From a virus: 64,000 nucleotides of DNA. The stretch is taken from positions 32,001-96,000 of IMG/VR virus record IMGVR_UViG_3300031957_001682; one strand, written 5' to 3'. The notes below the pieces were generated by a model. It saw only the letters and a program-made list of their open reading frames with translations, was not told the origin of the DNA and ran no database searches. Shown here piece after piece: positions 6,532 through 42,429 of this stretch (within the stretch, counting starts at the first letter, position 1; the number at the start of each line of letters is the position of its first letter). Both the position numbers and the translations under genes were made by a program.

Positions 6532-7368
6532 TCAATAGCCTAAATCCTGTGAATAGTCGGGGTTATTACGAGCATTTTCCGTCATTTCTTCGAGAGAATT
6601 AAACCCACCAGTTGGGAACATTTCTGCCGGGAAACGAAGTCTTGGTGGTTGGCCTTCGCTTTGTATCATCATTTGTGCTGGACAGTTCGCATTCATACAA
6701 ACCATTTTTCCTTCACCGGGGTGAACTTCTTCCAACTTTCCTTGACAAACTTTACAATTTGAAGCAACAACATTATGCCTCGCTCGCACTTCTTCGGGAA
6801 TCTCCACACCCGCTACCGAAGGATAGCCAAATTTCAAAATATCCCAAGCATCACGCATAGGAACTTGGCGAGAGGTCATGATGCGGCGCATGTGTTCAGC
6901 CTCGGCATCGGGGTTGAACTCTTCTTCGGGCGGCATACCATCACGGAGTTTACCTTCACTGTCAAACAAATTAGGCATTCGTTTTTTATCAGCATCTATG
7001 TCTTCTTGGCTTTCATTAGGCGTTGTACCTTCTTTCATAGCCTGTTCTAATTCTTCTTGTCTTAGTGCGAAGTCTGCCTCCGCTTCACCGCTATAATCGG
7101 GTTCACTCAACGAACTTTCCAAGTTTTGCCCCTCAAAGGGTACTCTTTCGTTCATGAACTTGAGTCCGTGTTCCTCCGGGTTCGCTACAGCGTCGTACAT
7201 GAGTTTGTCACGGGCTTGAGTAAACTGTTCACCTGCGGCATCACCACCAGCACCACGAAGTTCGTTAGCGACTTTTTTGTTTGCCCACCGTTGAAGGCGA
7301 ACTTCTTCACCATCTGCGGTAAGCACCTTTTGTCGGTGGGGTTGCATTGCTTTAATCAAAATCTTCAT
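6532..7368 (-). CDS. Putative internal head protein with cargo tag and Zn ribbon
   Basis: N-terminal MKILIK-A; internal VPMRDAWDILK followed by CKVC...CMNANC. Confidence 0.55.
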   Translation of the reverse strand: MKILIKAMQPHRQKVLTADGEEVRLQRWANKKVANELRGAGGDAAGEQFTQARDKLMYDAVANPEEHGLKFMNERVPFEGQNLESSLSEPDYSGEAEADFALRQEELEQAMKEGTTPNESQEDIDADKKRMPNLFDSEGKLRDGMPPEEEFNPDAEAEHMRRIMTSRQVPMRDAWDILKFGYPSVAGVEIPEEVRARHNVVASNCKVCQGKLEEVHPGEGKMVCMNANCPAQMMIQSEGQPPRLRFPAEMFPTGGFNSLEEMTENARNNPDYSQDLGY

Positions 7369-7377
7369 AGTATCACA

Positions 7378-7563
7378 TCAGTATTGTGGTTCAAAACCGG
7401 GTTGTTGCATCGCCGCCCTACAATGAGGACATGCGTTATGGGCGTTGCGGCCCATACCTGCGGGTGCATCAAAATGACCGCCGCAATTCTTACATTCAAA
7501 ACCGACTATTTCATCTTCACGGGCTTTCAAAACTTTCCATGCCTCATTCATTGCATTCTTCAT
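7378..7563 (-). CDS. Small Zn-ribbon protein with cargo tag
   Basis: MKNAMNEAWKVLK-A then CKNC...CPHC. Confidence 0.6.
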   Translation of the reverse strand: MKNAMNEAWKVLKAREDEIVGFECKNCGGHFDAPAGMGRNAHNACPHCRAAMQQPGFEPQY

Positions 7564-7567
7564 AGTA

Positions 7568-7867
7568 TCACATTCTGTTCTTTTCGTCACGACTTGCTAA
7601 GTTGTATTCCATTGGTTTGTCACAACTACCACAAGTGGCTCTCCACATAAAATGAAGGAAGCCACAGTGTGTACAGCGTGTACCCGAACCTATGTTCAGC
7701 ACATCACCGATATTACGATTACGGTTGCGTTGTGAAGATGTAATACCCTTGAGGGGGTTTTGCTCGTCAGTCACAGCGGCAATGCTGTACTCACTATCGT
7801 TCTTGACACCTTGCTTACTCGACCGCACCATGTCGCTAAGGTCGAGAGTTCTTGCATCAAATCCCAT
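7568..7867 (-). CDS. Small Zn-ribbon protein
   Basis: CTHCG...CGSC; GAGGTGA RBS upstream. Confidence 0.6.
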   Translation of the reverse strand: MGFDARTLDLSDMVRSSKQGVKNDSEYSIAAVTDEQNPLKGITSSQRNRNRNIGDVLNIGSGTRCTHCGFLHFMWRATCGSCDKPMEYNLASRDEKNRM

Positions 7868-7878
7868 ACCTACTCACC

Positions 7879-8082
7879 TCAAGCGAGTTGGTATGTCACC
7901 ATGACAAAGATATTTCCCAATACAGGGAATACTTCGGTATCAATCACAGAACTCGTACTGCTTGAATCAGCAACCGCTTGAATGAGGTCTTCAACTGCCG
8001 CCGCCCATGTAGCCGCCGCATTTACCTCTTTAGGCGAGAAAGGGCCGAAGCACTTTACGCCAATCTTGGTTAGTGATGCCAT
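7879..8082 (-). CDS. Small virion-module protein
   Basis: GAGGTGA RBS; in operon after the capsid gene. Confidence 0.55.
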   Translation of the reverse strand: MASLTKIGVKCFGPFSPKEVNAAATWAAAVEDLIQAVADSSSTSSVIDTEVFPVLGNIFVMVTYQLA

Positions 8083-8093
8083 CGTTAGTCACC

Positions 8094-8800: not shown

Positions 8801-8810
8801 TTAGCCCACC

Positions 8811-9440: not shown

Positions 9441-9476
9441 ATTATGTCATCTCCATTATTTTTTTCTCATCCACCA

Positions 9477-10577
9477 TCACTTAAGGTCACGAATTGAAGC
9501 GTGTCCTCCGAAGAAAGTCGTCCATAGTTCTCCCATAGTTCGGTACATTCCTTCTTGTCCAAGACGGTTGATTGCGAATGGGTCACCAGTTTCAATACCA
9601 CTCTCGAAGTATTGGGTCGGGATAGCGGTTGAGAAGTACAAGTAGTCCGTATCAAGGAAGTACATGCGGCTCAAGGTGTCTGCTTGAACATCCTTAGATG
9701 GGATGATTGGGACACCGTTGTAGGTAGCGACGATGAATCCGGCTTCGATACCGGGAACACCCTTCACACCGTTGTAGGTAGGAGTGATTCGCTTCTCTTC
9801 CATGAATCGCTGTTGCGACTGTAGGAGTTGTTGAAGGCGCATCAAAGTGTCATATCCTGTAAGGATGACCTTTGGGTTGCCACCACGAGTCCAGCACTTT
9901 TGGAAGATGGTGTCCAAGTGGTCGAGGGAAAGAGTTCGGTCAGTACCGGAGTTCTCATCGTGTTCTGCAAGGGACCAAGAGTTTGCACTTCGGTCGATTG
10001 AGTAAATGTCTTCGTTAGCGGAAGCAGATGCACCGGTTGTGATTCGGTCAAGTGACTCGAAATCGTTGCCAGCGGCGGTAGCCTTGTCAACAAGAAGCAT
10101 CTTGTTGATATGCTCGGCGTGGTGCTTACCCATTTCTTCCTTGAGGATTGAGCGAATGTCGCCCAGTCCGTCATCCTTGTCAGCAAGGAACATTGCGGTT
10201 TCGCTCATGTCGAAGGTGTGAACCACAGTCTTCGGCTTTGCGGCAATGTGTTGGAAGGTAGGCTTGGTGGTGTCCGGTAGGGTTGCGTTTTCTGCAACAC
10301 CGCCGCCAACAGTAAACGAAGGTCGTGCAGTGATGACTCGCCATCCACTGCGTTCCCACGGTCGCTTTGGTAGGATTGAAAAGGCGTTGAACTCTTGGTT
10401 CAATTGGGACCAAACTTTGCGACCATAAATCGCTTGGTAAGTACCAGCAGTTGTGGACAGCATAGGGCTGTCAGCCTTGAGCAACTCACTACCGGAGTAG
10501 GAATAGCCCATTGCGTTCCCTGCGCCGTAGTAGTATCGTTCCATGTCAGTTACGCTTCGGATATAATCTCGTGCCAT
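9477..10577 (-). CDS. Major capsid protein (HK97 fold)
   Basis: ~366 aa directly after the protease/scaffold; GGVAENATLPDT E-loop pattern, YNGVPIIPS, MYFLDTDYL; strongly biased codons; candidate cleavage SELLK34/A35. Confidence 0.88.
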   Translation of the reverse strand: MARDYIRSVTDMERYYYGAGNAMGYSYSGSELLKADSPMLSTTAGTYQAIYGRKVWSQLNQEFNAFSILPKRPWERSGWRVITARPSFTVGGGVAENATLPDTTKPTFQHIAAKPKTVVHTFDMSETAMFLADKDDGLGDIRSILKEEMGKHHAEHINKMLLVDKATAAGNDFESLDRITTGASASANEDIYSIDRSANSWSLAEHDENSGTDRTLSLDHLDTIFQKCWTRGGNPKVILTGYDTLMRLQQLLQSQQRFMEEKRITPTYNGVKGVPGIEAGFIVATYNGVPIIPSKDVQADTLSRMYFLDTDYLYFSTAIPTQYFESGIETGDPFAINRLGQEGMYRTMGELWTTFFGGHASIRDLK

Positions 10578-10608
10578 ATATTTCACTCTCCATTATTTTT
10601 TTTGTTTT

Positions 10609-11508
10609 TCAAGCCCCTCGTGTTACCGATGCGGCGAGATTGTGTACTTCATCCCAAGACATGTTGCCCAAGTCTTGTGTGGATGGGACTTCAACATTAG
10701 ATGTGGAAGCCGACTTTTGAATTGATGTGCCGGAAATGGCGATGTTGTCAATTCGCTCACTTAGAGCGTTGATGGACTTCATCACTTCATTGATTGGGGC
10801 ACGAGCATCGAACTCGGCTTTTTCAGCCTCATGCTTTGCGATTGCCATTTCTTTGCTCAATCGGTTAGAGAATTGAGATTCAAGGTCACCACGGAATCCT
10901 TGTTCCAATGCGGCGGCTTTGTACACTTCGTATGCGGCTTCAATATCACTTGAAGAAACATTGCTGTGGTTAAGGTAGCCCTTGCTCATCGAAACAGGTC
11001 CGAGTGCGCCGGATGGGGTCTTACCACCGGATGAGGTGATAGCGTTAATTGCACCAGTGGAAGGTGAACCGTTTTCTTGTCCACGGCCACGGACTTGACC
11101 AGCAAAGTAGTCAGCACCGTCAACAGCGTCGGGATTGTCAAAGCCACCAAGTTGTGCCTTCTCCAAGTTGTCGAAGTGAGAGCGTGCTTGCATTGTGTCA
11201 ACACCAGCAGATTTGAGGGTGTCTTCCATCCAGTTCAAGTATTCAGCGGTGATTACATCGCTGTATTCACTCTTTGCGTAGTTCATCTTATCATCATCAT
11301 TAGTCATAGGTTCATCATCCTTTTTGTCTTCGTCTTTTTTGTCAGCGAATGGGTTTTTAGATTCTTTCTTTTCCTCTTTGGGGTCGGAATCATCTTTTTT
11401 GTCGTTCATGTGTTCTTTGAGGCCGGGGGGCATTTCGCCTTTTTCCATTGCGTCAAGTCGGGCTTCGAGTCTGCTCATAACATTGTTTAAGTCATTTTCT
11501 GTGGTCAT
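10609..11508 (-). CDS. Probable nested in-frame scaffolding protein
   Basis: AAGGAGG-ACACCAAC-ATG inside the protease gene, right after the end of the protease domain. Confidence 0.5.
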   Translation of the reverse strand: MTTENDLNNVMSRLEARLDAMEKGEMPPGLKEHMNDKKDDSDPKEEKKESKNPFADKKDEDKKDDEPMTNDDDKMNYAKSEYSDVITAEYLNWMEDTLKSAGVDTMQARSHFDNLEKAQLGGFDNPDAVDGADYFAGQVRGRGQENGSPSTGAINAITSSGGKTPSGALGPVSMSKGYLNHSNVSSSDIEAAYEVYKAAALEQGFRGDLESQFSNRLSKEMAIAKHEAEKAEFDARAPINEVMKSINALSERIDNIAISGTSIQKSASTSNVEVPSTQDLGNMSWDEVHNLAASVTRGA

Positions 11509-12024
11509 GTTGGTGTCCTCCTTTAGAATGCGAAATTGTGCTTCGGGGTTAATTCCTTTTTCACAAATCGTAATCTCATGTAGTTCCATCTTACTAATTT
11601 CTTGGTAATCTCCATGTTCTCCATCGGACTTTCGCACTCTTTTGAACGCTTGTCCTCCAATGGAAAATCCTTGCAAATTACCCTTACGGATTTCTGCGGC
11701 CACTTCACGAGCCTTTTCAATGTCGTTGCGAAGTGAAACAACCACAAACATACCAGTATCGTCAACTTCGGATTTCCACATCCTTCCGTTTGAGTCAACA
11801 TAGGAGTCAATAACTTCTCCCACTTGAATGTTAGAGTGAGCGAGTTGCACATTGCGGAACTTGTCACTCTTCATAAATCCGCCAAAAGCATCCTTTAGTG
11901 CTGAACGGGTAATGAGGTCGCCTTGCTTGTCCACCAGTTCAACTGATGCGTAGCCAGCGATAACCATGTCGGAACTGCCCTTGATGAGAGCAATGCCGGA
12001 GGTAGGTCGCTTGAGGGACAACAT
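10609..12024 (-). CDS. Prohead protease fused to a C-terminal scaffold
   Basis: HK97-type protease motifs (IAGYASVELVDKQGD, QLAHSN, LQGFSIGG, LHEITICEKGINPEA) followed by a charged coiled-coil region; GGAGG RBS before ATG 12024. Confidence 0.85.
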   Translation of the reverse strand: MLSLKRPTSGIALIKGSSDMVIAGYASVELVDKQGDLITRSALKDAFGGFMKSDKFRNVQLAHSNIQVGEVIDSYVDSNGRMWKSEVDDTGMFVVVSLRNDIEKAREVAAEIRKGNLQGFSIGGQAFKRVRKSDGEHGDYQEISKMELHEITICEKGINPEAQFRILKEDTNMTTENDLNNVMSRLEARLDAMEKGEMPPGLKEHMNDKKDDSDPKEEKKESKNPFADKKDEDKKDDEPMTNDDDKMNYAKSEYSDVITAEYLNWMEDTLKSAGVDTMQARSHFDNLEKAQLGGFDNPDAVDGADYFAGQVRGRGQENGSPSTGAINAITSSGGKTPSGALGPVSMSKGYLNHSNVSSSDIEAAYEVYKAAALEQGFRGDLESQFSNRLSKEMAIAKHEAEKAEFDARAPINEVMKSINALSERIDNIAISGTSIQKSASTSNVEVPSTQDLGNMSWDEVHNLAASVTRGA

Positions 12025-12064
12025 TACCCTCCGATTCATTGTCATGGTATATAGAATGATACTA

Positions 12065-15000
12065 TTACACTGAAAGAGTTGGAGTATCGTTTTCATCGTC
12101 ATAAACGATGGACTCGTCTTCATCGGTCTTCATTTCAATGTGTTTTATTGGCTTTTTCTTTTTTTCTGCGGAATCGGGTTTTATTTCCCCTTCATCCGGT
12201 CTTTTCTTTCCGTCATAATCCGGTAAGTTGCTTTCTTCGGTTAATTTTGTAGGACCGCTTGGAGATTCTATAGGTGTAGCCATATCAATTCCTAAGCCTC
12301 TCGGTCCAGTCCAAGTCAATTTTTCTTTAGCAAGTTGGTCTAAAGCCCTACTGATTACTTCAAGTGCCTTTTTTGTTGAAGGTTTAAGCAAACGATTGTC
12401 GTCTTTTTCATCCAACACCCCTGCCGATTGCTCATCTTGTTTTTTACGACTCGGTACATCTTTTTCATCCATTTCTAACTTCATAAGATGACCTTCAATC
12501 ATCAATGGAGCAACGGTATGCCAATACGGGTGAAGACTTTCTGCTAATGTAATTGAGTAATTTGACTTTCTCAAATCACCCAAAGCGGAAGAAGGTGTGT
12601 GTAAATACCAATTTTCTCCAATTCTTTCAACTTGATATGTCACTGTGTCGATATTTTTCAAAATTACTTGAATAGTATTGTTGTGATATTCTAAATCGTG
12701 TGGTATGAGTATAGGTGAAAATGATTTTGTAAGTAAGTCGAGGGATTCTGTGCTGGCCGCACCTTCACCTTCACCTTCACTTTCTATTTGTCCCACTTGT
12801 ACATTGTACACATCTCGACTTTTTCTTCGTTTTTTAGAAACACCAGTGATAGTTGCTCGAACAATATCGCCAACTTTGAATGCCTTTTGTTGATTGTGTG
12901 CTGTTCCTACATCCATGTAAAATTTGTTTTTATGTGTCACAGCCCGGTTGCCCAATGATTCACCATCAAGAATTGGACCAGCACCAAGTTGGTATGAGAA
13001 TGGACCATTACCCTTACGGTTAAGGATAATAAAATTGAAGTCACGAGTTTTACGCAGTAATAACCACTTTGGATGACGACGCTCTCCTTTCATGTATGTA
13101 GATTTGTTGTCACGCAGAAGTACAACTTTATGTTCATTCTGCAAAATTTTAACAGCATCTTCAAGTCCTTCTTCATCAGTCATTTTAGTGTCATGCGGGC
13201 CGGGAATAATGACATTTTCATGGCTATCAAACTGCCCTCTTAGCACTTTCATGCGTTCATGCATCAACATTTCACTCACATTAGTATCATCATAATTGAT
13301 AATGTCGATGATGTTCAAATCTTTTTCACCTACAATACCATCAATAACAAAATTATTGTCATTTAGTTCTGCAAGGCTTTCTTTGAAGGCTTTCTTCAAT
13401 CCTACTTTACGGCCATTCTCGTCGTAAGTGGTAATTTCATTGTCTTTTTGTACGATAATAACACGCTTACCATCGTACCATTTACTTACAACCCAAGAAC
13501 CACTGAACCCTCTTAAGTGTTCAAGGTCGCTTAAATCAAAGATACGATGCATGGGTCGTACAGGTGGAACCCATTCAGCATCACTACTCTTTGTTAAAAG
13601 AACATCCGGGTTCAAAAGAGAAGCAATATATTCTCCCATCTCCCCCAAAGCAATACGGTCTTCTGCTGTTTCGTAAGTTAATGGATTCATTGCTAAAGCC
13701 GGTGATGTGGCATTTTGTACTGGTATGCTTTCTAAACTTTGAAGCACTTGACTACCTACTTCTTTCCCGTGTAAACCAGTAATTGCATCTTGCCATGTAT
13801 TTTGAAACAACTTTGGTTCAGTAAAAGTTCCGACTATGGGTTCACCATCACTTGAAAAATCAATTCCAAATGTTGATTGTTGAGGATTAGCCACTGAATG
13901 TACTACACCGGCTCCGGTGTGTGTTGGAATAATACCATAGGTATCGGGGTTTATTCCACCTACAGGTACAGGTTCTTCATTAAAACCAACAGACAGTGTG
14001 GTTTTTTCTTGAGGTGCTATATTATCAATGTTAATTTGATTTTGATTCAAGGCAACAATACTATCAAGTCGGTTTTTTGAAGCACGAGTCTTGTATTTTT
14101 TCTCCCCCGAACCAACACCAAAACGATTGTGAATGTCAAATTGCTTACCACCAGCATCAAAGAACGATAAACCAGCAGGTGACATAAGTGAGTCATCGGC
14201 TACAGTGCGTACAACATTGCTTGTAATACTGTGAACTGGGTGTTGCTTCCATTTTTCGTGTTTTGGTTGTGCGTTTTCCATTGCAGTGTGGAAGCCTTCT
14301 TTTACACTGTCTTGTAAAAATTCATCATCACCAGCAAGGTGATGCAAAAAGAAATCATCATCAAATTTACCGCTTTCCATAAGTTGGCCCACGGTACTCA
14401 CATGCAAGGGTTGGTTTGTATTGTTAGATTCGTCAATTATTCGTTGAACATGTGAAGCCATGCGGTTTTTTTGTTCTGTGGTTTTTGGAGTAAGACCAAG
14501 ACCTTCTAAAACTTCATCGGTGTTCATAGTACCGTCAACGGTAAAAATTTCGTCACCTTGCAGGTGTTCGGTTATTTTTGGATGTACACCCTTTTGTCGT
14601 TGGGGTACTTTTTCAGTTGTATTACCAAAACGGTATGCTTGAGTTTTGATACCGTGTACATCATGCGGTACTATACCCAACATTCTTTCAGCCTCAAACA
14701 TCAGTCGATTGTGATTTGCAAGGAACTGTTGAGGGTCTGTTTTTGCTAATTCTTCACTAAAGTGATTTGGGTCATGTTCCAATACACGAGGTAGTAAAAA
14801 TTGTGCGGCTTGAAATACAGACTCACGGCTTGCTTTGAGTAAGTTATTGAAAACTTTAGCATCTGCCTCAACAGGATTGGTTTTACCAAGTGCCCTCTTT
14901 GCGGCTTTACCTTGTAGTTGATTAAGTTCAACTGTGAGTTCTTGTATTTCATTCATAATGCGCTTTGCCCCTTCGGGACTAAACTCTCCTTGTGCCGCAG

Positions 15001-18000
15001 GGTCATAGAGTGTTGATTGAAGTTTTTCAATTTCTGTACGAATATCTTCTTCTCTTTGAACAGAAGGGTACATACCACCCATTGATAACGCTCTATGAAT
15101 AGTGTGAGCATCAAATGGTAGTAGATTACCTTCCTTATCAAGAGTTTTAATTTTACTCTTGCCAGTCAAACTTTCTTTTATGTTTTCTTTTCTTTTTTCT
15201 TGTGCCAGTTCATAACGGTGGTTTGTCAGCCAGTTATGTAAACCTTCAATGTCGCCAGTATTGAGTGCTACATCTTGTTGAGTAAGAGCATCCTTAAGTT
15301 GTTGAAATTCTATGTTATTTTCATCGTCATCAATATCCCCATGAAGGTGATTAAAAACTTCGGTTGCTGAATTGTTGTTCAATTTTGCTAATGCAGTTAA
15401 AATCCTCATATTTTTAGCATCATCGGCGTTTCTAATGTACCGCTTAGTATGTGTAAACGATGGTTGTGTTTGCCCCATTCCTTGAAAATCTATGAAATCG
15501 TCATGGTCAGCACCATAAGTGACAGGTACATTTCCATCTTTTAATGCCTTGAGTTGTTCTATTGAAGTTTTGTTGGGTGCATGGGGTGAATTACTTCGAC
15601 CGAGCATAGTTTTGAGGTAATGTAGTTTTCTTTTCTTTGCTAATATAGGCGTATCACCGCTATGTGATGAATATGCTTGTTCGGGATGAGTAGTTTTCAT
15701 AGCGTTAGATGTAATGGATGGATGGAAATACCGTGTTTTAAATTTCTTCCTTTCTGCACTGTTCATATTCCTTATTGCATATTCTGTTTGAGGTGAAAGC
15801 GTTGTTTTATGAAGAGTCCAGTTATGTTTTTCACCTGCTAATGTTTTTGTAAATACATTGGCTGGTGAAAATATGTTTTCCAACAAAGTGCGTTTATCAC
15901 CTTTATCGAACTTTTTTGTGACCGGGTTCCAAGTACCAACAGGATTTGCTTTTCCAGTACCAAAATGTAATCCCAATGACATATTTTCGGGGTTTACATT
16001 TAATGGTTCATACTGTTTTGAACCTGTCATCGTATTAGTGTGCGGTATAGTTTCAAACATTGAAGAAAACTCCGGCATAGTATCGTCTTCCTTTATGCTT
16101 GAAGTTTGTACTGGTTTTTGACCTTCACCGGTAAAGGGGTTAAAAGGCTCATCAGCATCTATGGAAGCAGGTAATAGTTCATCGAGTGTTGATTGCATTC
16201 CGGGCGATAAACTGTGAATTATTTCGTTGTAAGCAGAATGAGTCATACCTGCTCCACCACCTACATCAAAACCTTGACTCCAAAATTTAGCCGGTCCTAC
16301 GGTGAAATTACCATTACCACCAAGTTGCCAGTGTTTGGGTACATCTTCATCGGGATGAGGGCCATGTGGGGATTGAAGGAAAGTAAGGTGTTCCCTCATT
16401 TCCTTTCCTCTTGATGCGATATTACCGCTTAATTTTGCTTCTTCTTCCATATTTTCTATGTCTTCTAATGGTATAATAGGACCATCCATGTTTCCGTAAA
16501 TAGGGTGTTTTAACAGTGGTTTACGGGTTTTAGGGTCATAACCGGCAAGGAAAAGAATATCTTCCATTGACATAAATGTTTCATGTGGACCTTGCATGAT
16601 ACTTTTCTTTTTTGGTCGATGGTTTCTTGATGATGCCCATAGACCCTTTACTCCATCTTTTGTTTCAAGAGGGTAAGATTCCGCCATGTCATTTTTGTCA
16701 AGATTCAATTTTGGTAAGAAACTGAATGGTTTACCTACCCACTCACCGTTTTGGTCTTCTTCGATACCATGAGCATCATGCAACGCTTCAATGATATAAT
16801 CAGCAATAGAACCAGTTGCTTCTTTTTTATCATCTAAAAGTTGGTATGTATGTACGCCTTCACCAAAGGCATTTTGCAAAAATCTGTTATTACCTTGACT
16901 ATAATCTTCCATACTTTCCATACGATGATGTGCATTAGCACCTCTATGTTCATCACCTCGTGTAGCCCAATTTAACTCCGGTGTACGACGAATTAAGTTA
17001 TTCCAAGCAATGCGAGCAGAAGGTATTGTTTCACCGTTAGGTAATTTTAGAAGAGGGCTTTTATCAAGACCACCTTCTTCATGTATTCGACGCATAACTG
17101 CTGTACGCTCAACAGGGTTTAGCCATTCAAGACCATACATGTACCCCTCATGACCAAGTGCTGATGGGTGTTTATCACCATTTTCATCAACAACATAACC
17201 GTCACTTACCCATTGCTTGGCTCTTGCTTCAAAATGAGCAACTCGCAAGCGATTCTCATTTTCTTCTGCCGAACGACCCTCGGAAAGATTTGCCTCATTC
17301 ATTTTGATAGCATCAATGTTATTTCGTTTCCATCGTTGATAATCTCGTTGATACAAGTCATCTTGATGAGAAACATTGCTACCATTTACTCGGATTGGTC
17401 CTAAAAGTGTTTTTTTGTTGTGACCAAAAATAAGTGGACTTTTGACCTTTTCAAGTTCATCGTGTAGTAAACCTTCCATTCGTGCTTCTTCTTTTGAGTG
17501 TCCGTTGAAAATGTGACTTCTAAACTTCTCAACAAAAGCCGGATAACCACTTGTGGAATTAGTATGCAATAAAGGATAAACGGAAGAATGGAATGGAAAA
17601 TGCATTTTTGTGTAGGGTGAGCCGGGTTCGGGGGTAAAAGAAGGCCATACAGCATGAGAATGCATTATGTCTTTTGCACCACGCAGACCTTTATTCCAAA
17701 TATGATTTGTAGGTTCATTGTAAATTTCTTGACGACCAAGAAGCATACCCGGTCCTTCTGCTACTCCCGCTTGGGTATTTACCGTAGCAATATCTTGACT
17801 TGCTATTTTTTCTCGTTGTGCGTCATCTTTGACAATCATTTCAGCACTGTATTTCAAAGTACGAAGAGTGTCATCGGTAGGTGCTTTTTCTAAAGACTCC
17901 CACGCTATAATGTATTCTGCGGCATTAAAGGCTAAATCCTTACCATCGGCTAATGACAAAAGAAAGTCATCTTTTACAATGTTGAAATTTTCTGCCACCA

Positions 18001-18648: not shown

Positions 18649-18984
18649 TTACACCTCGGTTTCTTTTGCTGATTGTGCCATTTCATGAATATCTTCCCAC
18701 GACATATTGTGGAACTCTTCATTTGTTTGCGGCACAGAAGAGTTTACACCTTTCATAATTGAATCATCATTCATGTCATTACGAAAAGCATCGCCAGTGA
18801 CATTTTCAGTAAATGGTGTTGTTGCTTTCACCATGCCCATTTTTTTCAACATAATAGTTGGATTGTTAATCATCTTACGAAGGCGCATGTTTTCTTGCTT
18901 GAGTGATTCAAGGTCGCTGTCCATGCTTTCCATCTTTGTAATTAAAACACCCATCAATCGTTCCGCATCCGATTGTTCAGTCAT
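18649..18984 (-). CDS. Coiled-coil protein sharing the scaffold C-terminal motif
   Basis: Ends VPQTNEEFHNMSWEDIHEMA, like the scaffold end VPSTQDLGNMSWDEVHNLA; GAGGTGA RBS. Confidence 0.6.
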   Translation of the reverse strand: MTEQSDAERLMGVLITKMESMDSDLESLKQENMRLRKMINNPTIMLKKMGMVKATTPFTENVTGDAFRNDMNDDSIMKGVNSSVPQTNEEFHNMSWEDIHEMAQSAKETEV

Positions 18985-23402: not shown

Positions 23403-23590
23403 TTTTTCTTCCCCTTCTTCTTACCTTTGAACTTACCTTTGCAATATTGAACAGCCCATCCATTTGCATAGGCTGATGGGTAAACATCGAACTTGCGCTT
23501 TGCCGCCGCTTTACCAGCGGGACACAGTTTCTTTTCTAATGCATCCCACGCTGTTGTCATTCCGACACAGTGACCGCAATAGCAACTCAT
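23399..23590 (-). CDS. Small basic protein (YPSAYANGW family)
   Basis: AKRKFDVYPSAYANGWAVQYCK motif common in phage head modules; preceded by MTTAWDALEK. Confidence 0.6.
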   Translation of the reverse strand: MSCYCGHCVGMTTAWDALEKKLCPAGKAAAKRKFDVYPSAYANGWAVQYCKGKFKGKKKGKKK

Positions 23591-25555: not shown

Positions 25556-25559
25556 TGTA

Positions 25560-34802: not shown

Positions 34803-34935
34803 TAATTGTCATCATTGTCATAATACCATTCAAAATAATGAGTAGTATTACTATATATTTAGTGTAGGGGGGTGAAAATGACAAACATTAGTCAATTTGT
34901 TGACTACGATGATGACAATTATGACAATTGACAAT
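34803..34935. repeat. Non-coding TGACA/TGTCA inverted-repeat element, copy A
   Basis: attgtcatcattgtcataat ... AT-rich core ... aatgacaa, gtcaatttgttgac, atgacaattatgacaattgacaat. Confidence 0.7.
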
Positions 34936-37670
34936 CAAAGTAAGGTTCCTTTGTCCTTGAAATGCCTCGCTCGGTTGGTATGAGGGTCTTCGGGAACAAT
35001 AGTGTGCTGGCTGGTGTGGCTCATGTCCGGTCCACCCTGTCCCATAATGTGTCGTTGTCGGCGTTCACGGTTAAGTTCCTCTCGATACTTCACACGCTCC
35101 GGGCTGGACTCGTACTTCTTGTCGTACTCCAACTTATGCCGCTTGGCTTCGGGGCTTACACGCTCTTTAAGTAATCGCATAGCAATCTCCATTGGTTCGC
35201 CTTGCTGTATCATTTGCGGTTGTTGAGATTGTAAATGATTCCAATACTCATAGGTATCGGGTCTATGTTGTAGCATTTCATTAACCCCCGTTTGATTTGA
35301 TTGGTCCGATTGATGTGCACCATATTCATGAGCATACACTCTTGCTTGATTAGCCAACGCAACTCTTTGTTTTTCAGCATCCATTTCGGCTTGGTTTGTA
35401 GGTTTGGTCTTTAATCTTTGTAAAAAAGAGGCTCCTTGCATATCTGTAGGATATTCGGGTTTTACTTGAGATTGTAATGGCCCATGTTGTTGTTCTGCCC
35501 ATTCATTTATTTCGGGGTTAATTAGACTGTGCGTATATTCATGCCCAAGAGTGTTTGCTAATCCTTGTATAGATTCATCACTGTCGTTTATACCACGCAC
35601 ATCAGCCCCAATAAAATCCCCATTTGATTGAAGTCGTGGTTGAGAGCCACCGGTTGTGTAATCACCTTTATTTTGAATTTCTTGCACAGTATTTTTATCC
35701 ACTCCACTCATTCGATTCATAGTTTGATTGCGAGGTATTGATAGCAATGCTTCATTGCTAATATCGGCAGGTGTATAAAATCCCTGCATACCTTCTTCGT
35801 CATCACCAATATAGAACTCTTTGAGCAAACGCATAGCAATATCCATTGGTTCGCCTTGCTGTATCATTTGCGGCTGTTGTACTTGCGGCTGTTGTACTTG
35901 CGGCTGTTGTACTTGCGGCTGTTGTACTTGCGGCTGTTGTAATGGTAATTGTTGTTGATTTGGGTCTGTTGGTTGTACAACTGGGTTAGGTTGCATGTAT
36001 TGAGCCATTCGTTGATTATAGTCATCCGTAATTTGTTCACGATTTTTCCCCCATCTCATTCTGTATGGCTCTTTAGGTCTAACTTCACCTCTTTGATTTG
36101 TTTGTTGAAGATTGGGTGTATCAATTTCTGTATTTTCTCTTTGTGCTATTTGCCCTCCTATTGATAAAGCGGGTTGTGACATGGCTGTATTTATCTCATT
36201 TTGGTTATTTGTTCTCGCATGTGCTGTGTTTTCTAATACTGAATTTGTAATGGGTGTATTGGTTAAAAATTGTCTTGGTATATTTCCACCGTAATGTGTT
36301 GCATCACTAAAATCAACTGTTTGTCCTTGCGCTGTTTTAAAATTATGACTTGGGCCTATGAAATTTGGATGGTTTTGGTCGAAAGCGGCTTGTCTTATTG
36401 CTAATAATTTAGGTTTGGAGTGTGTACCTCCACCATGATGACCCACACTTCTATCAATTGCATAACTAAGTGCTTCCGAAGGATTTGTACTCATGGTGCG
36501 GTAATTATCACTATGTGTTTTTAAACCATCTCCACCCATTATTTTTCTTGCATCATCACCCGTAGTTCCGTGATAAGCAACTACAGGGCCGTAAGGTGAA
36601 GGAAAGTCTTCATGATGCTCGCCTAAATTAGTTTGATATTTAAGCAACCGCATAGCGAGGTCCATTGGTTCGCTTCTATAGAATTGTGTTGGGTTTTTTA
36701 ATGCACCCGGAATTGCAGTTAATTGGTCATCGAGTAATTGCATTTGTTCGGGCGAAGTATGTGTTTCATCTAATTCTGCTACACGCCCCGATGGTCCCAT
36801 AGTTCGTTCCCATTGTTGAAAAGTACCATGTAATGGGTCCATACCCCCACCTATGTTTCCTGTTAAATCGTTGAGGTTTTCTGTTATAGAAGAAATTACT
36901 TTTCCATCCGGTCCTATTTTTGTTGGTACAATATCTTGGAATGATTTTATACCATAGGCTCTTGCTGTTTGTGGGTCAATTAAAGCACCCGGAATTTCAG
37001 CATCCATTATCATTTGGGCAAGTTCACGAGCACGATGACGCTGTGCTCCTTCCAGTCCTATTCTTGATGGAGGGGCATCTTTACTTCTTGGTAAAAACAT
37101 ACTTGCGGCTCTTTGAAGGTCATAAAGCATAAATGGGTTTTTGTTAAGTCGGCGTACACTGTCTTCTTCTAAATCACCATAAATGATTCCTTCGGGGTCT
37201 TGATTTTTACCGTATCTTTCCGGTGTACTTTCAAAACCATACAAATTTAAAGGCCATGCTCTTTTACTTTCGGGTACATCAACAAATTCGCTACCTTGTC
37301 TTGGTGTTAAACCCATTGCATGACTCGGAAAAACAAACCTTCCTCCAAGTGGCTCATCAGTCATTATGGTTTCAAGTGGTAGTTCTTCCCCTCGACCCAT
37401 TTCTAAATTATGGTCCCTAAAACTTGTATTTTCACGATTGGCAAGTTTTCTTGCTAAATGTAAATTTTTACTTGGGTGGTATTTACTGGTATTTTGTGCA
37501 GAAGTTAATCTAAGTGACCTATTTGGAGAGTATCTTTGGTGAAAACCAGCCATAAGTTCATCGAATTTTCGCTCATTATACTCACGAATAATTTCATCCC
37601 AACGCTCATTTTGGTTTTTAAGAAGGAGGAAAGCCTGTTCCATTGGCTCTAACTCTCTACGCATACGCAC
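34935..37670 (-). CDS. Four-module polyprotein (unknown / ART-like / zincin-like / HNH-like), each module preceded by a cargo tag
   Basis: EPMEQAFLLLK, EPMDLAMRLLK, EPMDIAMRLLK, EPMEIAMRLLK; modules carry YHGT..ST...A.SYA..GNIP, HEYTH...HEYGAH, and DMSH...EDPHTNRAR. Confidence 0.75.
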   Translation of the reverse strand: MRMRRELEPMEQAFLLLKNQNERWDEIIREYNERKFDELMAGFHQRYSPNRSLRLTSAQNTSKYHPSKNLHLARKLANRENTSFRDHNLEMGRGEELPLETIMTDEPLGGRFVFPSHAMGLTPRQGSEFVDVPESKRAWPLNLYGFESTPERYGKNQDPEGIIYGDLEEDSVRRLNKNPFMLYDLQRAASMFLPRSKDAPPSRIGLEGAQRHRARELAQMIMDAEIPGALIDPQTARAYGIKSFQDIVPTKIGPDGKVISSITENLNDLTGNIGGGMDPLHGTFQQWERTMGPSGRVAELDETHTSPEQMQLLDDQLTAIPGALKNPTQFYRSEPMDLAMRLLKYQTNLGEHHEDFPSPYGPVVAYHGTTGDDARKIMGGDGLKTHSDNYRTMSTNPSEALSYAIDRSVGHHGGGTHSKPKLLAIRQAAFDQNHPNFIGPSHNFKTAQGQTVDFSDATHYGGNIPRQFLTNTPITNSVLENTAHARTNNQNEINTAMSQPALSIGGQIAQRENTEIDTPNLQQTNQRGEVRPKEPYRMRWGKNREQITDDYNQRMAQYMQPNPVVQPTDPNQQQLPLQQPQVQQPQVQQPQVQQPQVQQPQMIQQGEPMDIAMRLLKEFYIGDDEEGMQGFYTPADISNEALLSIPRNQTMNRMSGVDKNTVQEIQNKGDYTTGGSQPRLQSNGDFIGADVRGINDSDESIQGLANTLGHEYTHSLINPEINEWAEQQHGPLQSQVKPEYPTDMQGASFLQRLKTKPTNQAEMDAEKQRVALANQARVYAHEYGAHQSDQSNQTGVNEMLQHRPDTYEYWNHLQSQQPQMIQQGEPMEIAMRLLKERVSPEAKRHKLEYDKKYESSPERVKYREELNRERRQRHIMGQGGPDMSHTSQHTIVPEDPHTNRARHFKDKGTLL
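35176..35879. repeat. 50-bp direct repeats (35176-35225 and 35830-35879) bracketing the zincin module
   Basis: cgcatagcaat(c/a)tccattggttcgccttgctgtatcatttgcgg(t/c)tgttg, 2 mismatches. Confidence 0.9.
35868..35940. repeat. 15-bp tandem repeat, about 5 copies (QQPQV linker)
   Basis: ttgcggctgttgtac repeated. Confidence 0.9.
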
Positions 37671-37723
37671 CAGTTGGTGGTAAAAAGCGATACCATTTAG
37701 AATGCTCGCCCGCTACGAGAGTC

Positions 37724-39241
37724 ATGGGCCGACATGTTGCTGTGCGTAAAGCACCTACTCCGGCTGATGCTGGGGGTGCAGTTGCAGGTCGAGCCGCCGG
37801 AGGCGGTATAGGTAGTGCCATAGGTGGTGTTTTAGGTTCTATTATCCCCGGTGCTGGCACTGCGGCTGGTGCTTCTGCTGGTGGTGCAGTTGGTGGTGCA
37901 GTTGGTGGTGCAGTTGGAAAAGTTGGTGCTAAGAAAATTGCTGTTGGAGCCGCTGAAATGGCACAAAATCAAGCCAATGCTCAAGCCGCTCAATCACAAC
38001 AAACCATGCAGAATAACATTCAAAGCGCAAAGGACACGGCTCAACAAGCCAAAGACCAAGCCGGTATCGAAAAGGCTTGGAAGTTTCCAGCAAGAATGAT
38101 GCACCCGGAATTTAAATCATATCGGGATAGCATTATTGAGCGGGCTAAAAAAGCACCTCGACAAGATGAAGATTTTCGTCAAAACCAGCATTGGAATGAA
38201 CGCATGGGTCATAAAGAAGGCAGACCCCAAGAGGCTCGCTACATTCCAAACCAACACTTTGAACATGAAGATGAAGTACACAACATTACTCCATTTCAAG
38301 TTGCTTATGCTACATTGCAACACATGAAAGAAAATAGGTTAATTGATGAAGACAATCACGATGCTGTAGCATTGCGGGAATTACTTCATACTGACCAACC
38401 ACACCCCGACCCTAATCAAATGGAAAGTGGTATGGCTCACATATTTTCTCCTGTAATGGATATTAGGACTATGAGGGGTAAATCAGCACACGCTCAACCA
38501 TTTATTGACCCAAAGGGTGCAAAAACACAGCATATTTACGCACAAGATGTAGTAAAACCCGATAATCTTTCATATTCATCACAAGAAAAAATTGCTGTGC
38601 GACCAAAATCAATTGTAAATGAATATATGCCCGGTAAAAGAGCAAAACCAAGTGAAGAAGAACTTATTGACAGTTTTATTGACACTCCGGCAAGTAAATT
38701 ACAAAGAAATTTTGGTATTGAAGACAATAGACTTGCAGGGCAAGAATATATTGCTCAAAGAAAATATGAAAAAGAACAAGCCAAACAACAAGCGGCTCAA
38801 CAGGCTCAACAAGAAGCACAGGCTAAAGAAGAACAATTTCAACAACAACCAATAACAGTAAATGATATGGGCGGTGTGTACTTTGTCACAGACCCCGCTT
38901 ACGGTTATAATGGTGAAATGATGGATTATCAACAATTAGTTCAAGGTGGGTATGACAAATATCTTAACAATGATAACAAAAGTGAACCAATGGACTTAGC
39001 GTGGCAAATGTTGTTTAAAGCGGGTGTTGAAGTTCACCACGATGAACCACTGCCGCAAGAGTTTACTCAAGACATTACTACACTTGACCGTCAACACAAA
39101 ATGGTTCCAACAGAAAACGGCACTATGATTGACAATATCAGCCCACACATGCTCCGTACCATTGAACTAATGGCGCAAAATCACAAAGATGATGATACTT
39201 TCACACCTAAACCATTTAAAATGCCTACAACTTTTCATTGA
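37724..39241 (+). CDS. Modular protein with N-terminal glycine zipper and internal cargo tag
   Basis: VAVRK-A; GGGIGSAIGGVLGSIIPGAGTAAGASAGGAVGGAVGG; SEPMDLAWQMLFK-A at 38984-39019. Confidence 0.65.
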   Translation: MGRHVAVRKAPTPADAGGAVAGRAAGGGIGSAIGGVLGSIIPGAGTAAGASAGGAVGGAVGGAVGKVGAKKIAVGAAEMAQNQANAQAAQSQQTMQNNIQSAKDTAQQAKDQAGIEKAWKFPARMMHPEFKSYRDSIIERAKKAPRQDEDFRQNQHWNERMGHKEGRPQEARYIPNQHFEHEDEVHNITPFQVAYATLQHMKENRLIDEDNHDAVALRELLHTDQPHPDPNQMESGMAHIFSPVMDIRTMRGKSAHAQPFIDPKGAKTQHIYAQDVVKPDNLSYSSQEKIAVRPKSIVNEYMPGKRAKPSEEELIDSFIDTPASKLQRNFGIEDNRLAGQEYIAQRKYEKEQAKQQAAQQAQQEAQAKEEQFQQQPITVNDMGGVYFVTDPAYGYNGEMMDYQQLVQGGYDKYLNNDNKSEPMDLAWQMLFKAGVEVHHDEPLPQEFTQDITTLDRQHKMVPTENGTMIDNISPHMLRTIELMAQNHKDDDTFTPKPFKMPTTFH

Positions 39242-39307: not shown

Positions 39308-40153
39308 TCATTGCAATAACGGTACTTTATGTTCCTTTTCGTTTAATGCAATTTGTTGTGCGATAGTTGATGCAACTTTAAGTGTGTCAATGCACACACC
39401 GGTTTCAAAACCCCATACATTAAGATGCAATACCAGTGTTTCGGTTGACAAGTTTGCTCCACTATTGTCAACAAACGGACAACCGCCGAGTCCACCGATG
39501 CTTGAGTCAAACTCACGAACACCAGCCATAAGACCCGCACGAATTAGTTGCAATGCTTTTTCTTCGTCACCTTTGTGATGTAAATGCAATGCGGGAGTCA
39601 TACCTTCGAGTATAGCCATCTCGGACCACAAATGTACCTCTTCTCTTGTTCCTACCCCCACTGTATCAGCAAACACTACAGTATTGCCAAACATTTTTGC
39701 ATCTTTAATGCACGATTGCATGGTTAATGGGGAAACTTGACCACTGAATGGACTACCAAACGCCATGCTGATGTACACACGCACATTTTCCTTTGGTGTT
39801 TTATCCAAGAATGTTTTGTACATCAACACAAGTTCACTTCGGGTTTTTCGCATGTTTTTCATGTTGAAGGTTTCACACGGGCTAATGACTATGTTGATTT
39901 TTTTAGCACCAACAGCAATGGCTCGGTCAAAACCACGCTTGTTCATGACAAGCGCACCGCCACGCTGATACACTTTTTCAGCATCAGCCATTTGCGGCAC
40001 AAGTTTTGGGTGTGCAAAACTAACTTCTTCAATTTCTGTCAAGCCAGCGTCGTATAATGCATCAATAAGTTCGGTTTTTTTAGAAGTGGGTATTGGAAAT
40101 TTAAGTGATTGCAAACCGTCACGAGGGCCAACCTCGTACACGGTCACTTTCAT
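39308..40153 (-). CDS. hmgL: Hydroxymethylglutaryl-CoA lyase (auxiliary metabolic gene)
   Basis: EVGPRDGLQ, SFAHPKLVPQMADA, ADTVGVG, HLH, GGLGGCPF...GANLSTE (DRE-TIM metallolyase with catalytic Cys). Confidence 0.9.
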   Translation of the reverse strand: MKVTVYEVGPRDGLQSLKFPIPTSKKTELIDALYDAGLTEIEEVSFAHPKLVPQMADAEKVYQRGGALVMNKRGFDRAIAVGAKKINIVISPCETFNMKNMRKTRSELVLMYKTFLDKTPKENVRVYISMAFGSPFSGQVSPLTMQSCIKDAKMFGNTVVFADTVGVGTREEVHLWSEMAILEGMTPALHLHHKGDEEKALQLIRAGLMAGVREFDSSIGGLGGCPFVDNSGANLSTETLVLHLNVWGFETGVCIDTLKVASTIAQQIALNEKEHKVPLLQ

Positions 40154-40350
40154 TCAATTCCCTTCCTCATACCGTTCCAGCACCCTTCTTCCAATTCTTC
40201 TTTAGTAGAAAAGTAAATTACATCACTACCGAGGTCATCAAATAAAAACCATACAAAAGCAAAACCCGCAATAAAAGCAAGTCCAAAAAAAAGCCACAAA
40301 CTCATGTTGTAAGACAGTGCGGTGTAGAAATTAAACCTTTCGCTAATCAC
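40150..40350 (-). CDS. Small single-TM protein
   Basis: LWLFFGLAFIAGFAFVWFLF; coupled to neighbours. Confidence 0.55.
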   Translation of the reverse strand: MISERFNFYTALSYNMSLWLFFGLAFIAGFAFVWFLFDDLGSDVIYFSTKEELEEGCWNGMRKGIE

Positions 40351-41291
40351 TGTCCACCAATAAATGGCGAAGTGCTTCTTGCGGCTCGGCCTTGCATACG
40401 AGGTGTGACTCTTGGCTCATCCATTTGTCCACGCTTGTTTTGACGAGGACTTCCTCTTAAGTTTGTTGAAGCAATGTTATGTGCCGCTGGATTGTTTTCA
40501 TGAAGTGGTTCATTTTCATATTCACTCTCTACATCGTCATCATACATTTGATTTAGGTCAAAAATACTTCCGCCCTCATCGTATGTTCTATCGACTATAT
40601 CCGGCTTACCCGCTTTACGACCTGCGCCAGCGGCCCAATCATGCAAACTATTTTGTAAGTGTTGAGTTGTAACGGGTTTTTGAGTGAATGGGTTTTCAAA
40701 TGGGCCTAATCGGTTTAAATGACCTACATACTCGTCATGCCAATCGGGGTCATGTGAGGCCATTTCATTACTTATGTCATCACTACCAACAGGAGGTCTG
40801 CCGGAACTTCCAGCCCGGCCTTCGTTTGGGGCTGGACCCCTGCCGCCAATTGAACGACTCATAGGCATACCTGTTTCATCCATTTCCGGCATACCCATTG
40901 CATCCATTTCATCGGCTTCGGGTTGTTGACCCATGCGGGCAAGAGTTTGTCGGTCAAGGTCGTCTTGTAATCTTTCAAAGTGACTTTCTTCACCTTCATG
41001 ACCCATAGCGTTAATGAGTTGGTCCTCTATTTCCTTTTGATTGAGCCTTTGGTTATCTAAAAATGCCATAGCGTCAGCCATACTGTTAATATGTGGAGTT
41101 TGAGTACCCGCCATTTCAATTTCATTTAATGCATGTTTTTGTCTGCTTGCGGCATCAACACGCCTATCAGTCAAATCTTGTGGACTCAAACTTCTTGCAG
41201 GGTTATCGCCGTCTATGGTTGGTGGGGGTAAATTTAGTTCGTGACCACGCTGTTTCAATAGCATCCACGCTTGATTAAAAGGGGCGACCAT
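40347..41291 (-). CDS. Acidic, largely disordered protein with N-terminal cargo tag
   Basis: Starts MVAPFNQAWMLLK-Q. Confidence 0.65.
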   Translation of the reverse strand: MVAPFNQAWMLLKQRGHELNLPPPTIDGDNPARSLSPQDLTDRRVDAASRQKHALNEIEMAGTQTPHINSMADAMAFLDNQRLNQKEIEDQLINAMGHEGEESHFERLQDDLDRQTLARMGQQPEADEMDAMGMPEMDETGMPMSRSIGGRGPAPNEGRAGSSGRPPVGSDDISNEMASHDPDWHDEYVGHLNRLGPFENPFTQKPVTTQHLQNSLHDWAAGAGRKAGKPDIVDRTYDEGGSIFDLNQMYDDDVESEYENEPLHENNPAAHNIASTNLRGSPRQNKRGQMDEPRVTPRMQGRAARSTSPFIGGQ

Positions 41292-41400
41292 GTTAATCGC
41301 AGGTAAATCAAATACTTAACGATTAAGAAACATTTGATTATTCAATGTGATATAAGACCACGAAATAAACACAACCACTAAAAGGGCCAATGCTAATGCG

Positions 41401-42429
41401 TCACTGCGGGTTATTTCCTTGCCTTTCATAAAAACCTTGATTATTATAATATCCGTCGTACAACGGAGGGGATTCATTTTCAAAATTTGGGTCAAATCTT
41501 TGTTGCTTGGTATTTCTTGCCATTGGTTGTGTGGTATCATACTTCGCCGTTTCCGCTATATGACCTTGACCTCGCCTAATTTTAAGTCTGTCTTGTTCGG
41601 CTAACTCATCCATGTTTCTTGCTTGATTTTTTTGATTGACGATAGGAATTGCACCGTAATCTTGTCTGTTTAATCCACTACGCTGTCCTCGTGCATCAAG
41701 GAACTGTGGTACATCTTGCCGTTGATAACCAAGTGCTTGATGATGACTACCATCATCTTCTGTAAGGTGGTCACCTTTAATATTCGCTGGTAAATTTTGC
41801 ATAAATTTACGATGGAATGGGTCGGATTGGTAGTTTCGTTCGTTTGATACTATTGGAATACCTGCTCCAATTAAGGCTTGCATTAAATTCCTGTACATAT
41901 TTTGTCTTCGATATGGTTCCGGTGTACTACCGTAAAAATCATGGATTTGTGGGTTGTATTTATCTCCACCATGTCCCGATATTTGTGAAAGCACTTCACC
42001 TTCATCATTTACAAGTGAAAAATCTTTCTTACCACGATTATTATCACGAGGTGATATCTCAATTCGGGAGGGAACAGCCTCACGACGATTACTTTCACGA
42101 CCCATTCTCGCATTTAATTTTCGCTGTTCCGATACCTTTGGGTCACGATTTATACTACCATCGTTTTCAAATGTGGTTTGAAATGGCTGGTTTTTGGGCC
42201 ACGGGTAATCGGGATTTTTCTTAGTCATCATTCCAGCGAGTATTCGTTCTGCTGATTCTTCAATTAGTTCATCATACCTTTCATCAGTCATCCAGTGCGG
42301 TTGTGGATTTGCGCCTCTTGCCAACTCATACGCTTTATGTTGCAATTGAAGATTGATTTCTTCCACCAGTGTTAGCGGGTACGGCTCATTTTTCAACAAA
42401 GCCCATGCAGAATTGAATGGACCTTCCAT
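41401..42429 (-). CDS. Cargo-tagged protein with GNAT-like acetyltransferase domain
   Basis: Starts MEGPFNSAWALLK-N; contains HDFYGSTPEPYRRQNMYRNLMQAL (acetyl-CoA-binding motif A-like). Confidence 0.55.
   Translation of the reverse strand: MEGPFNSAWALLKNEPYPLTLVEEINLQLQHKAYELARGANPQPHWMTDERYDELIEESAERILAGMMTKKNPDYPWPKNQPFQTTFENDGSINRDPKVSEQRKLNARMGRESNRREAVPSRIEISPRDNNRGKKDFSLVNDEGEVLSQISGHGGDKYNPQIHDFYGSTPEPYRRQNMYRNLMQALIGAGIPIVSNERNYQSDPFHRKFMQNLPANIKGDHLTEDDGSHHQALGYQRQDVPQFLDARGQRSGLNRQDYGAIPIVNQKNQARNMDELAEQDRLKIRRGQGHIAETAKYDTTQPMARNTKQQRFDPNFENESPPLYDGYYNNQGFYERQGNNPQ

Follow-up and report, generated by a model that had tools for sequence, protein, structure and literature searches.

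Short peptides that address unrelated proteins to the inside of a protein shell, and polypeptides that string unrelated domains together for presumed delivery with DNA, are known from several systems. The cargo-loading peptides of encapsulins are extended, rich in Gly, Ser and Leu, usually C-terminal and uncleaved. The polyvalent proteins that Iyer et al. described in 2017 are reportedly polypeptides of phages and conjugative elements in which conflict-type domains are strung together, and they are presumed to be delivered with the DNA and processed. In phage T4, the internal proteins IPI-III and Alt carry a capsid-targeting sequence (CTS), a short shared leader that is removed by the protease gp21 (PMC9026906). 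In the giant phages phiKZ and SPN3US, many head-internal proteins are reported to undergo processing by the prohead protease, which acts at a short consensus, and their propeptides may aid incorporation (PMC5694885, PMC7411985, PMC10052503). Here we analyze a 64,000-nucleotide (nt) stretch of viral DNA, bases 32001-96000 of IMG/VR record IMGVR_UViG_3300031957_001682 (hereafter the window), and a peptide ending in Lys that recurs in otherwise unrelated proteins encoded there. This peptide, which we call the tag, may load swappable protein modules into the viral head and mark the sites at which the prohead protease cuts.

The record is a complete genome of 107,632 bp with a 75-bp terminal repeat. 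The source virus is a tailed virus of ocean archaea, a magrovirus, and the published description of magroviruses, which are viruses of Marine Group II archaea, agrees with this genome (PMC5434244). Two arms can be distinguished: a minus-strand capsid-building arm of 22,297 amino acids (aa), which encodes the large terminase, portal, protease-scaffold, major capsid protein and tail genes, and a plus-strand replication arm of 12,516 aa, which encodes an SNF2 helicase, a DUF932 protein, a pyrimidine-dimer glycosylase and functions of that kind. Among cultured relatives, the haloarchaeal siphoviruses HVTV-1, HCTV-1 and HCTV-5 come closest, with 35-37% identity in the capsid protein and a syntenic head module.

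A Lys-ended peptide recurs throughout the capsid-building arm

An earlier note on the window, made from its letters, had drawn attention to a motif recurring in unrelated proteins, and its strong copies all proved to be present, in frame and where the note had placed them. The motif reads (Phi-x-x-[SG]-E)-P-[MF]-[DE]-x-A-[WMF]-x-x-L-(L)-K and corresponds to a helical peptide of 11-17 residues that ends in Lys. Thirteen strong copies are found in nine open reading frames (ORFs) of the window, all of them in frame within long ORFs, and the complete genome holds 14-15 copies in 10-11 proteins, all in the capsid-building arm. When the called proteome of the whole genome was scanned with the motif as a regular expression, 14 matches were obtained, one of which is a look-alike inside the protease fold; within-protein shuffles (2000 trials) gave 0.22 matches on average and never more than 3. 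When 67 diverse tags (an alignment of 67 rows) were made into a profile, it returned 13 hits in the genome at 11-22 bits (E <= 0.006), one borderline hit at 6 bits and otherwise scores of at most 4 bits. The scores are bimodal, with a clean split between tags and noise. Two weaker copies ending in L-E-K that the note had also listed, one at 23534-23563 and one at the N-terminus of a 1978-aa ORF, scored below noise in this profile and are not supported. The replication arm, which the note had described as free of the motif, contains no copy in its 12,516 aa, the chance of this for 10 tagged proteins being 0.64^10 = 0.012.

The note had further placed the tag at N-termini or at domain boundaries. 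This was borne out, with the addition that C-termini are used as well: in two representative ORF sets, 95 + 33 tags (128) are internal, 18 + 58 (76) N-terminal and 16 + 4 (20) C-terminal. The copies of the window, which lie on the minus strand with a single exception, illustrate this range. The tag at 6832-6861 spans residues 170-179 of ORF 6532-7368, between a conserved acidic N-domain and a variable Zn-ribbon C-terminus, and the one at 7525-7554 is N-terminal in a 70-aa Zn-ribbon ORF (7378-7590). Just downstream of the large terminase gene (24065-25606, minus), a basic 162-aa ORF (23592-24080) carries the tag at residues 44-53 (23922-23951). ORF 28590-30257 (555 aa, basic and of low complexity) has a first tag at 29817-29849 and a second at 29454-29486, which have a 27-nt direct repeat in common. 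Four tags (37617-37646, 36639-36668, 35820-35849 and 35166-35195) are found in the 911-aa polyprotein encoded by ORF 34935-37670 (minus), one before each of its four modules: a module of unknown nature, an ADP-ribosyltransferase-like (ART-like) module, an HExxH zincin-like module and a 76-aa phrog_6437 module. The exception in strand is the tag at 38987-39019 (plus), at residue 449 of ORF 37643-39241, which is the sole plus-strand gene within the capsid arm and has a Gly-rich N-terminal region like tape-measure and tail-lysin PHROG families. ORFs 40347-41291 and 41401-42429 both bear the tag at residues 4-13 (41253-41282 and 42391-42420). A degenerate junction, P-x-x-x-K-x-x-L-V-K (22932-22946, minus), is present in the DUF5872 protein ORF 22503-23237, and the module that follows it stands behind full tags in other viruses. 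Outside the window, at 9.9-11.5 kb of the genome, there are one further full copy and two degenerate ones, and one of these precedes an ART-like module.

Selection acts on the peptide, and conservation ends at the Lys

The logo of 138 distinct instances reads Phi(-9) x [TRMA] [SG] E P [MF] [DE] x A [WMF] x x L (L) K, and right past the Lys its information content is at background level. Across the 67-row alignment, the Ala and the Lys are invariant. Constancy of the Lys was also apparent among 155 instances that were picked by the N-terminal half of the motif alone, with no Lys required: it stands four or five residues past the Trp in 151 of them, and Arg replaces it at most once. Such intolerance of Arg could indicate that the Lys is a covalent modification site presented by the helix, for example one used in cross-linking to the shell by an isopeptide bond, in conjugation of a ubiquitin-like protein (SAMP) or as a signal for degradation, and HK97-fold shells do use Lys in cross-links (HK97 Lys169-Asn356). 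We regard Lys chemistry of this kind as very improbable, however, because the genes seen beside the tags include none that is ligase-like or serves conjugation, and because the boundary directly after the Lys and the exact starts of the modules there better suit a scissile bond.

The residues [MF](i), A(i+3), W(i+4) and L(i+7) make up the hydrophobic face of an amphipathic helix, and AlphaFold predicts, with modest confidence (pLDDT 55-60), that the tag is helical and stands clear of the domain after it. A membrane-anchor helix or secretion signal was considered and rejected, since the tagged proteins are without hydrophobic segments and the positions of the Pro, Ala and Lys are too specific. 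At the DNA level, 252 distinct versions encode 192 distinct peptides, and each of the conserved residues Pro, Ala, Leu and Lys is encoded by all of its synonymous codons. This full degeneracy argues that selection acts on the peptide and not on the DNA, and a DNA-level motif was rejected on these grounds.

Modules downstream of the tag are exchanged between viruses

The major capsid protein is 80-99% identical in more than 598 IMG/VR contigs, and even among relatives this close the sequence downstream of a tag differs or is missing. Invariance of the downstream domains across relatives had been named in the note as an outcome that would speak against a loading tag; instead, the modules vary between relatives. 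For example, orthologues of ORF 6532-7368 keep the acidic N-domain and the tag, while the sequence past the Lys varies by virus or gives way to a stop codon. For ORF 28590-30257, the number of tags ranges from one to three among orthologues, and the inserts that separate them differ. The modules of the 911-aa polyprotein are similarly mobile. Its ART-like module also occurs in stand-alone proteins of ~250 aa with an N-terminal tag, as well as fused behind a DUF5872 domain via a degenerate P-x-x-x-K junction in which the Lys is invariant (27 of 27 sequences). The zincin-like and 76-aa phrog_6437 modules are likewise found either alone behind an N-terminal tag or inside polyproteins, and a module starting with '[MA]-P-V-V-D-T' begins exactly past the Lys in four different contexts. 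The mobile unit is thus a cassette made up of the tag and the module downstream of it.

Within the window, a 63-nt direct repeat of 92% identity (35163-35225 and 35817-35879), which encodes the tag and eight residues upstream of it, brackets the zincin module, and the 27-nt repeat brackets the insert of ORF 28590-30257. Because such repeats bracket single modules, tags appear to act also as recombination joints. Beside the 63-nt repeat, at 35858-35962, there is in addition a run of 15-nt tandem units that encodes a linker rich in Gln, Pro and Val.

It could be argued that a processing and/or recombination joint is all that the tag is, and that it has no addressing role. The bracketing repeats would be expected of a joint, as would the presence of tags at every polyprotein module junction and the differing count of modules between tags among relatives. 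At least 58 stand-alone small proteins, however, are tagged at their own N-terminus, where there is nothing to separate, and a pure polyprotein spacer is therefore insufficient. DNA identity is not conserved either, given the degenerate codons, and a helix of 17 residues is far longer than a protease site requires. A joint without any further role is accordingly quite unlikely. Common descent fares worse still. Some small tagged proteins are true paralogues (the ART-like and '[MA]-P-V-V-D-T' groups), and one could imagine a single paralogous family in which only the N-terminal helix is still recognisable. When the tag was masked, though, the tagged ORFs fell into many unrelated groups that differ in length, composition and Pfam hits. 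Together with the occurrence of the tag in the middle and at the ends of proteins, and with the abrupt stop of conservation past the Lys, this makes shared ancestry by itself extremely improbable.

Tagged cargo is soluble and rapidly turning over

Pfam searches of 98 + 77 tagged ORFs recognised little: DNA-binding Zn fingers, a Zn ribbon, DUF5872, DUF6321, SLOG, HD and GNAT domains. Only a few modules look like effectors, namely the ART-like, HExxH, SLOG, HD, GNAT and Zn-finger modules. PHROGs searches of the tagged ORFs of the window yielded two families of unknown function, along with tape-measure-like matches to the Gly-rich region. The best fold matches of the ART-like module are the ADP-ribosyltransferases Tpt1/KptA and DarT, and these are weak (Foldseek probability 0.85-0.95, E 0.06-0.15). 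The 911-aa ORF thus combines four unrelated modules, of which the HExxH module was read from the sequence, another has the phrog_6437 match and the ART-like one has weak fold support. A membrane-like segment was detected in 2 of 215 tagged ORFs vs 9 of 98 untagged genes, and the genes left untagged in the same island include a metabolic HMGL-like gene and a membrane/GTPase operon. The tagged cargo is therefore soluble, and its turnover is rapid.

Capsid protein and protease carry conserved sites ending in Lys

The earlier note had also listed hydrophobic-hydrophobic-Lys patterns near the N-termini of several proteins encoded in the window. Overall, the density of this pattern is equal in the two arms (0.42 vs 0.40 per 100 aa), and enrichment is confined to the first 45 residues, where 22 of 54 capsid-arm genes have it vs 10 of 55 (Fisher p = 0.012, tags included). 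Most of the listed sites are indistinguishable from chance occurrences, whereas those of the capsid protein and the protease hold up, being conserved at the boundaries between leader and fold.

The major capsid protein, which is of the SU10/HK97 type (ORF 9477-10586, minus), has its candidate maturation site, S-E-L-L-K|A, at 10476-10490. Among close relatives the capsid N-terminus is fully conserved and hence uninformative, so that information came only from 125 representatives at <=50% identity. Of these, 76% have Lys and 12% have Arg at P1, 79% have a hydrophobic residue at P3, and A-D-x-P follows; the leader ahead of the site is variable and measures 16-108 residues. In the predicted structure of the capsid protein (pLDDT 85.6), the site falls in a disordered, low-confidence linker (residues 21-46) between an N-terminal helix and the HK97 fold. 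The model aligns to encapsulin shells with Z 15-17, and its HK97 fold aligns from residue ~46 to HK97 residue ~120, the candidate site lying ~11 residues earlier. This start of the fold alignment puts the candidate site close to the HK97 maturation site. Mature HK97 gp5 chains begin at residue 104, which confirms the note's premise that an HK97-type protease can cut after Lys, here Lys103. The capsid position equivalent to the HK97 cut is Lys or Arg in 88% of the representatives, which is compatible with cutting and is no proof of it.

Directly upstream of the capsid gene lies the gene for a fusion protein made up of an S78 prohead protease and a scaffold-like C-terminal half (10609-12123, minus; PF04586 (Peptidase_S78), 1.1e-9; also S78_2). 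Following a variable leader, this protein has a conserved [IL]-x-[LV]-[LI]-K before the protease fold, and a conserved F-x-I-L-K is found at the end of the S78 domain. The Lys codons of these two flanking sites are at ~11980-11982 and ~11521-11523 (minus). Taken together, the conserved capsid and protease sites and the HK97 Lys103 precedent make it plausible, as judged from the sequences, that hydrophobic-(x)-Lys is the specificity of this S78 protease.

A 111-aa coiled-coil protein (18649-18984, minus) is a candidate scaffold and has the C-terminal W-[DE]-[DE]-[VI]-H of the protease. In its longer form, N-M-[SG]-W-[DE]-[DE]-[VI]-H-x-[LM]-A, this motif is present ~10 residues before the end of both the protease-scaffold (N-M-S-W-D-E-V-H, 10642-10662) and the coiled-coil protein (18685-18705), and across relatives it is conserved in exactly these two proteins. 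It is probably a shell-binding tail of scaffold and protease. We also asked if the tag could be a copy of this tail and rejected the idea, as only W-x-acidic-hydrophobic is common to the two, a weak resemblance, and the tag profile is silent on the tails even at E = 1000. The tag is thus not simply the capsid-binding tail of the scaffold.

The capsid protein of HVTV-1 (KC117377.1, 19779-20200) has a basic N-terminal extension of ~70 residues, followed by the conserved N-terminal helix, and its M-S-K|A-D-N site is homologous to L-L-K|A-D-S of the window. The halovirus papers that we examined are silent on capsid processing.

The tag is specific to these viruses

In four further relatives with complete or near-complete genomes of ~100 kb, 7-11 tags each are present, clustered and on a single strand. 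A scan for the N-terminal form revealed arrays of up to 10 consecutive small genes, each starting with M-x-(x)-P-F-[DE]-x-A-W-x-L-L-K, and some of the contigs that bear such arrays have few other genes in common with this genome. Two degenerate DNA patterns of the tag were run against 185,579 prokaryote species genomes and gave 0 and 9 matches. One of the nine belongs to a magrovirus contig in a 'Parvibaculum' metagenome-assembled genome (MAG) and another to what is probably a viral fragment; the remaining seven are close to the number that chance would give, and Poseidoniales contributed none of the nine. Mimicry of a host motif was therefore rejected: apart from mis-binned virus contigs, the scanned tag variants are absent from prokaryote species genomes. 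The contig in question (NZQM01000026.1, 16,435 bp, from a 'Parvibaculum sp.' MAG) is collinear with the genes at 26-34 kb of the window, with protein identities of at most 73% and one tag, and is a magrovirus contig mis-binned into a bacterial MAG. No tag was found in HVTV-1, so head assembly as such needs no tag. A search of the literature found no published description of the tag.

The existence of the same kind of head in the tagless HVTV-1 would also fit a quite different role, in which the tag is a docking motif for a hub outside the virion (a chaperone, an unfoldase, a replication/assembly factory or a subverted host complex) and neither packaging nor cleavage is involved. A hydrophobic face at i, i+4 and i+7 is typical of peptide-in-groove motifs, tags occur at N-terminal, internal and C-terminal positions, and the tagged genes cluster by the strand switch, which is a possible place for early genes. 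On the other hand, the absence of the scanned variants from the prokaryote genomes (mis-binned virus aside) speaks against mimicry of a host motif, the tag is restricted to the capsid arm, and the capsid protein and protease bear the same hydrophobic-x-Lys signature. In addition, a near-absolute Lys (with Arg at most once) and a zero-length boundary after it are unnecessary for plain docking, and a pure docking motif is thus insufficient to explain the tag. Overall, we consider docking to such a hub unlikely.

Other features of the window

Several further features were noted. GC content rises to 0.55 at 42400-44000 vs ~0.42 around it, at the strand-switch point, and two ORFs of ~300 aa overlap there on opposite strands (42890-43798, plus; 42911-43807, minus). 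Scans of this high-GC region (42-44 kb) for tRNAs, tandem repeats and Pfam families gave no match. Between the portal gene (19395-21182, minus) and the DUF5872 gene lies a 432-aa ORF (21179-22477, minus) with a LAGLIDADG-like G-F-L-D-A-D-G-S in its C-terminal half, which suggests a homing-endonuclease domain; Pfam had no match for this ORF at E <= 0.001. The HMGL-like gene (39308-40153, minus; pyruvate carboxyltransferase / HMG-CoA lyase family, Pfam E 3.4e-19) stands untagged amid tagged genes and is a candidate auxiliary metabolic gene. The 1978-aa ORF (12065-18001, minus), located between the portal region and the protease and without a Pfam match, is syntenic with HVTV-1 gp115, a 1313-aa 'zeta toxin' protein, and is a candidate giant internal head protein.

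Discussion

We propose that the tag loads swappable modules into the head and marks the sites at which the prohead protease cuts, and we put the probability of this at about 0.5. This reading, which is that of the earlier note, is the simplest one consistent with all the observations. While the head is assembled, one and the same viral partner would capture the tag helix and with it a single module or an entire polyprotein; the likeliest partners are the scaffold or core, or the shell with the inner face of its HK97 fold. Next, cutting after the tag Lys by the S78 protease would strip N-terminal tags, separate the modules of polyproteins and leave free cargo inside the head, and the freed cargo would enter the host together with the DNA, in the manner of the T4 CTS with the internal proteins and Alt.

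Our confidence goes no higher because, among other reasons, the motif of scaffold and protease differs and HVTV-1 is tagless. HVTV-1 dispenses with the tag in spite of its syntenic head module and a capsid protein that is 37% identical. Likewise, the scaffold and the protease share a C-terminal motif of their own, which the tag profile misses. Other observations count against loading and cutting as well. Most tagged genes cluster beside the strand-switch region and could therefore be early or middle genes rather than late ones. Sixteen to 20 tags are at extreme C-termini, where cutting would free nothing, and the helix predicted by AlphaFold continues ~5 residues beyond the Lys (pLDDT 55-60). 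For most cargo modules the function is unrecognisable, and most are without a Pfam match. Finally, our literature search found no virion proteome, N-terminome or structure of a magrovirus, and no metaproteomic paper.

A broader version of the proposal can be formulated, in which the tag is a programmable peptide address, ending in the P1 Lys of an HK97-type protease and used across the whole viral order, that loads a large and rapidly shuffled library of soluble proteins, many of them from families without known relatives, into the capsid for release and co-injection, while the DNA of the tag doubles as a recombination joint. This we hold only tentatively, and somewhat doubtful as a whole.

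In the surface ocean, magroviruses rank with the most abundant viruses; none has been cultured, and most of their genes are unannotated. If the proposal of loading and cutting is correct, at least a tenth of the genes of each genome would gain a location (inside the virion) and a role (host takeover in the first minute of infection, or anti-defence), and the tag would lead to a large reservoir of still unexplored enzymes directed at archaeal cells. The idea of a leader that targets proteins to the capsid, known from T4, would further be extended to viruses of archaea and to proteases of the HK97 type, and the tag could possibly provide a natural cargo-loading handle for HK97-fold particles.

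Comparison with known systems

Of the systems described so far, the T4 CTS offers the closest likeness. There too, a short shared leader is borne by unrelated, polymorphic proteins that look non-essential, ends sharply at the presumed cut and belongs to cargo loci that turn over quickly, and an ADP-ribosyltransferase-like enzyme is part of both cargo sets, although for the magrovirus this is a weak fold match. The two have no sequence similarity, however, and Pfam and PHROGs gave no match linking the tagged proteins to the T4 system. The presumed P1 residue is Lys here and Glu in T4, and the protease is of the HK97-type S78 family rather than the gp21 type, so that the systems are analogous and not homologous. 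Packaging and cleavage are proven for T4 and proposed for the magrovirus tag. The magrovirus tag also differs in having an archaeal host and in being found at C-termini and inside polyproteins; the joining of modules into polyproteins by the same tag is a feature undescribed for T4.

With phiKZ and SPN3US, the likeness would lie in the processing of many head-internal proteins by the prohead protease at a short consensus. Their consensus is a three-residue site ending in Glu, in contrast to the 17-residue, Lys-terminated helix of the tag, and the processed proteins are mostly conserved paralogues that do not form a swappable library. Encapsulin cargo-loading peptides resemble the tag in its proposed role, being short terminal peptides that direct unrelated cargo into an HK97-fold shell. 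For the magrovirus tag, in contrast, a helix with a Pro-[MF]...Ala-Trp core is predicted, and the tag is mostly N-terminal or internal.

Polyvalent proteins may be similar in that several unrelated conflict-type domains (ART-like, zincin-like, nuclease-like) are combined in one polypeptide. We know of no linker motif that is common to the domains of polyvalent proteins. In the magroviruses, by contrast, the same tag is present at every junction, and the modules that it joins also occur as tagged single genes.

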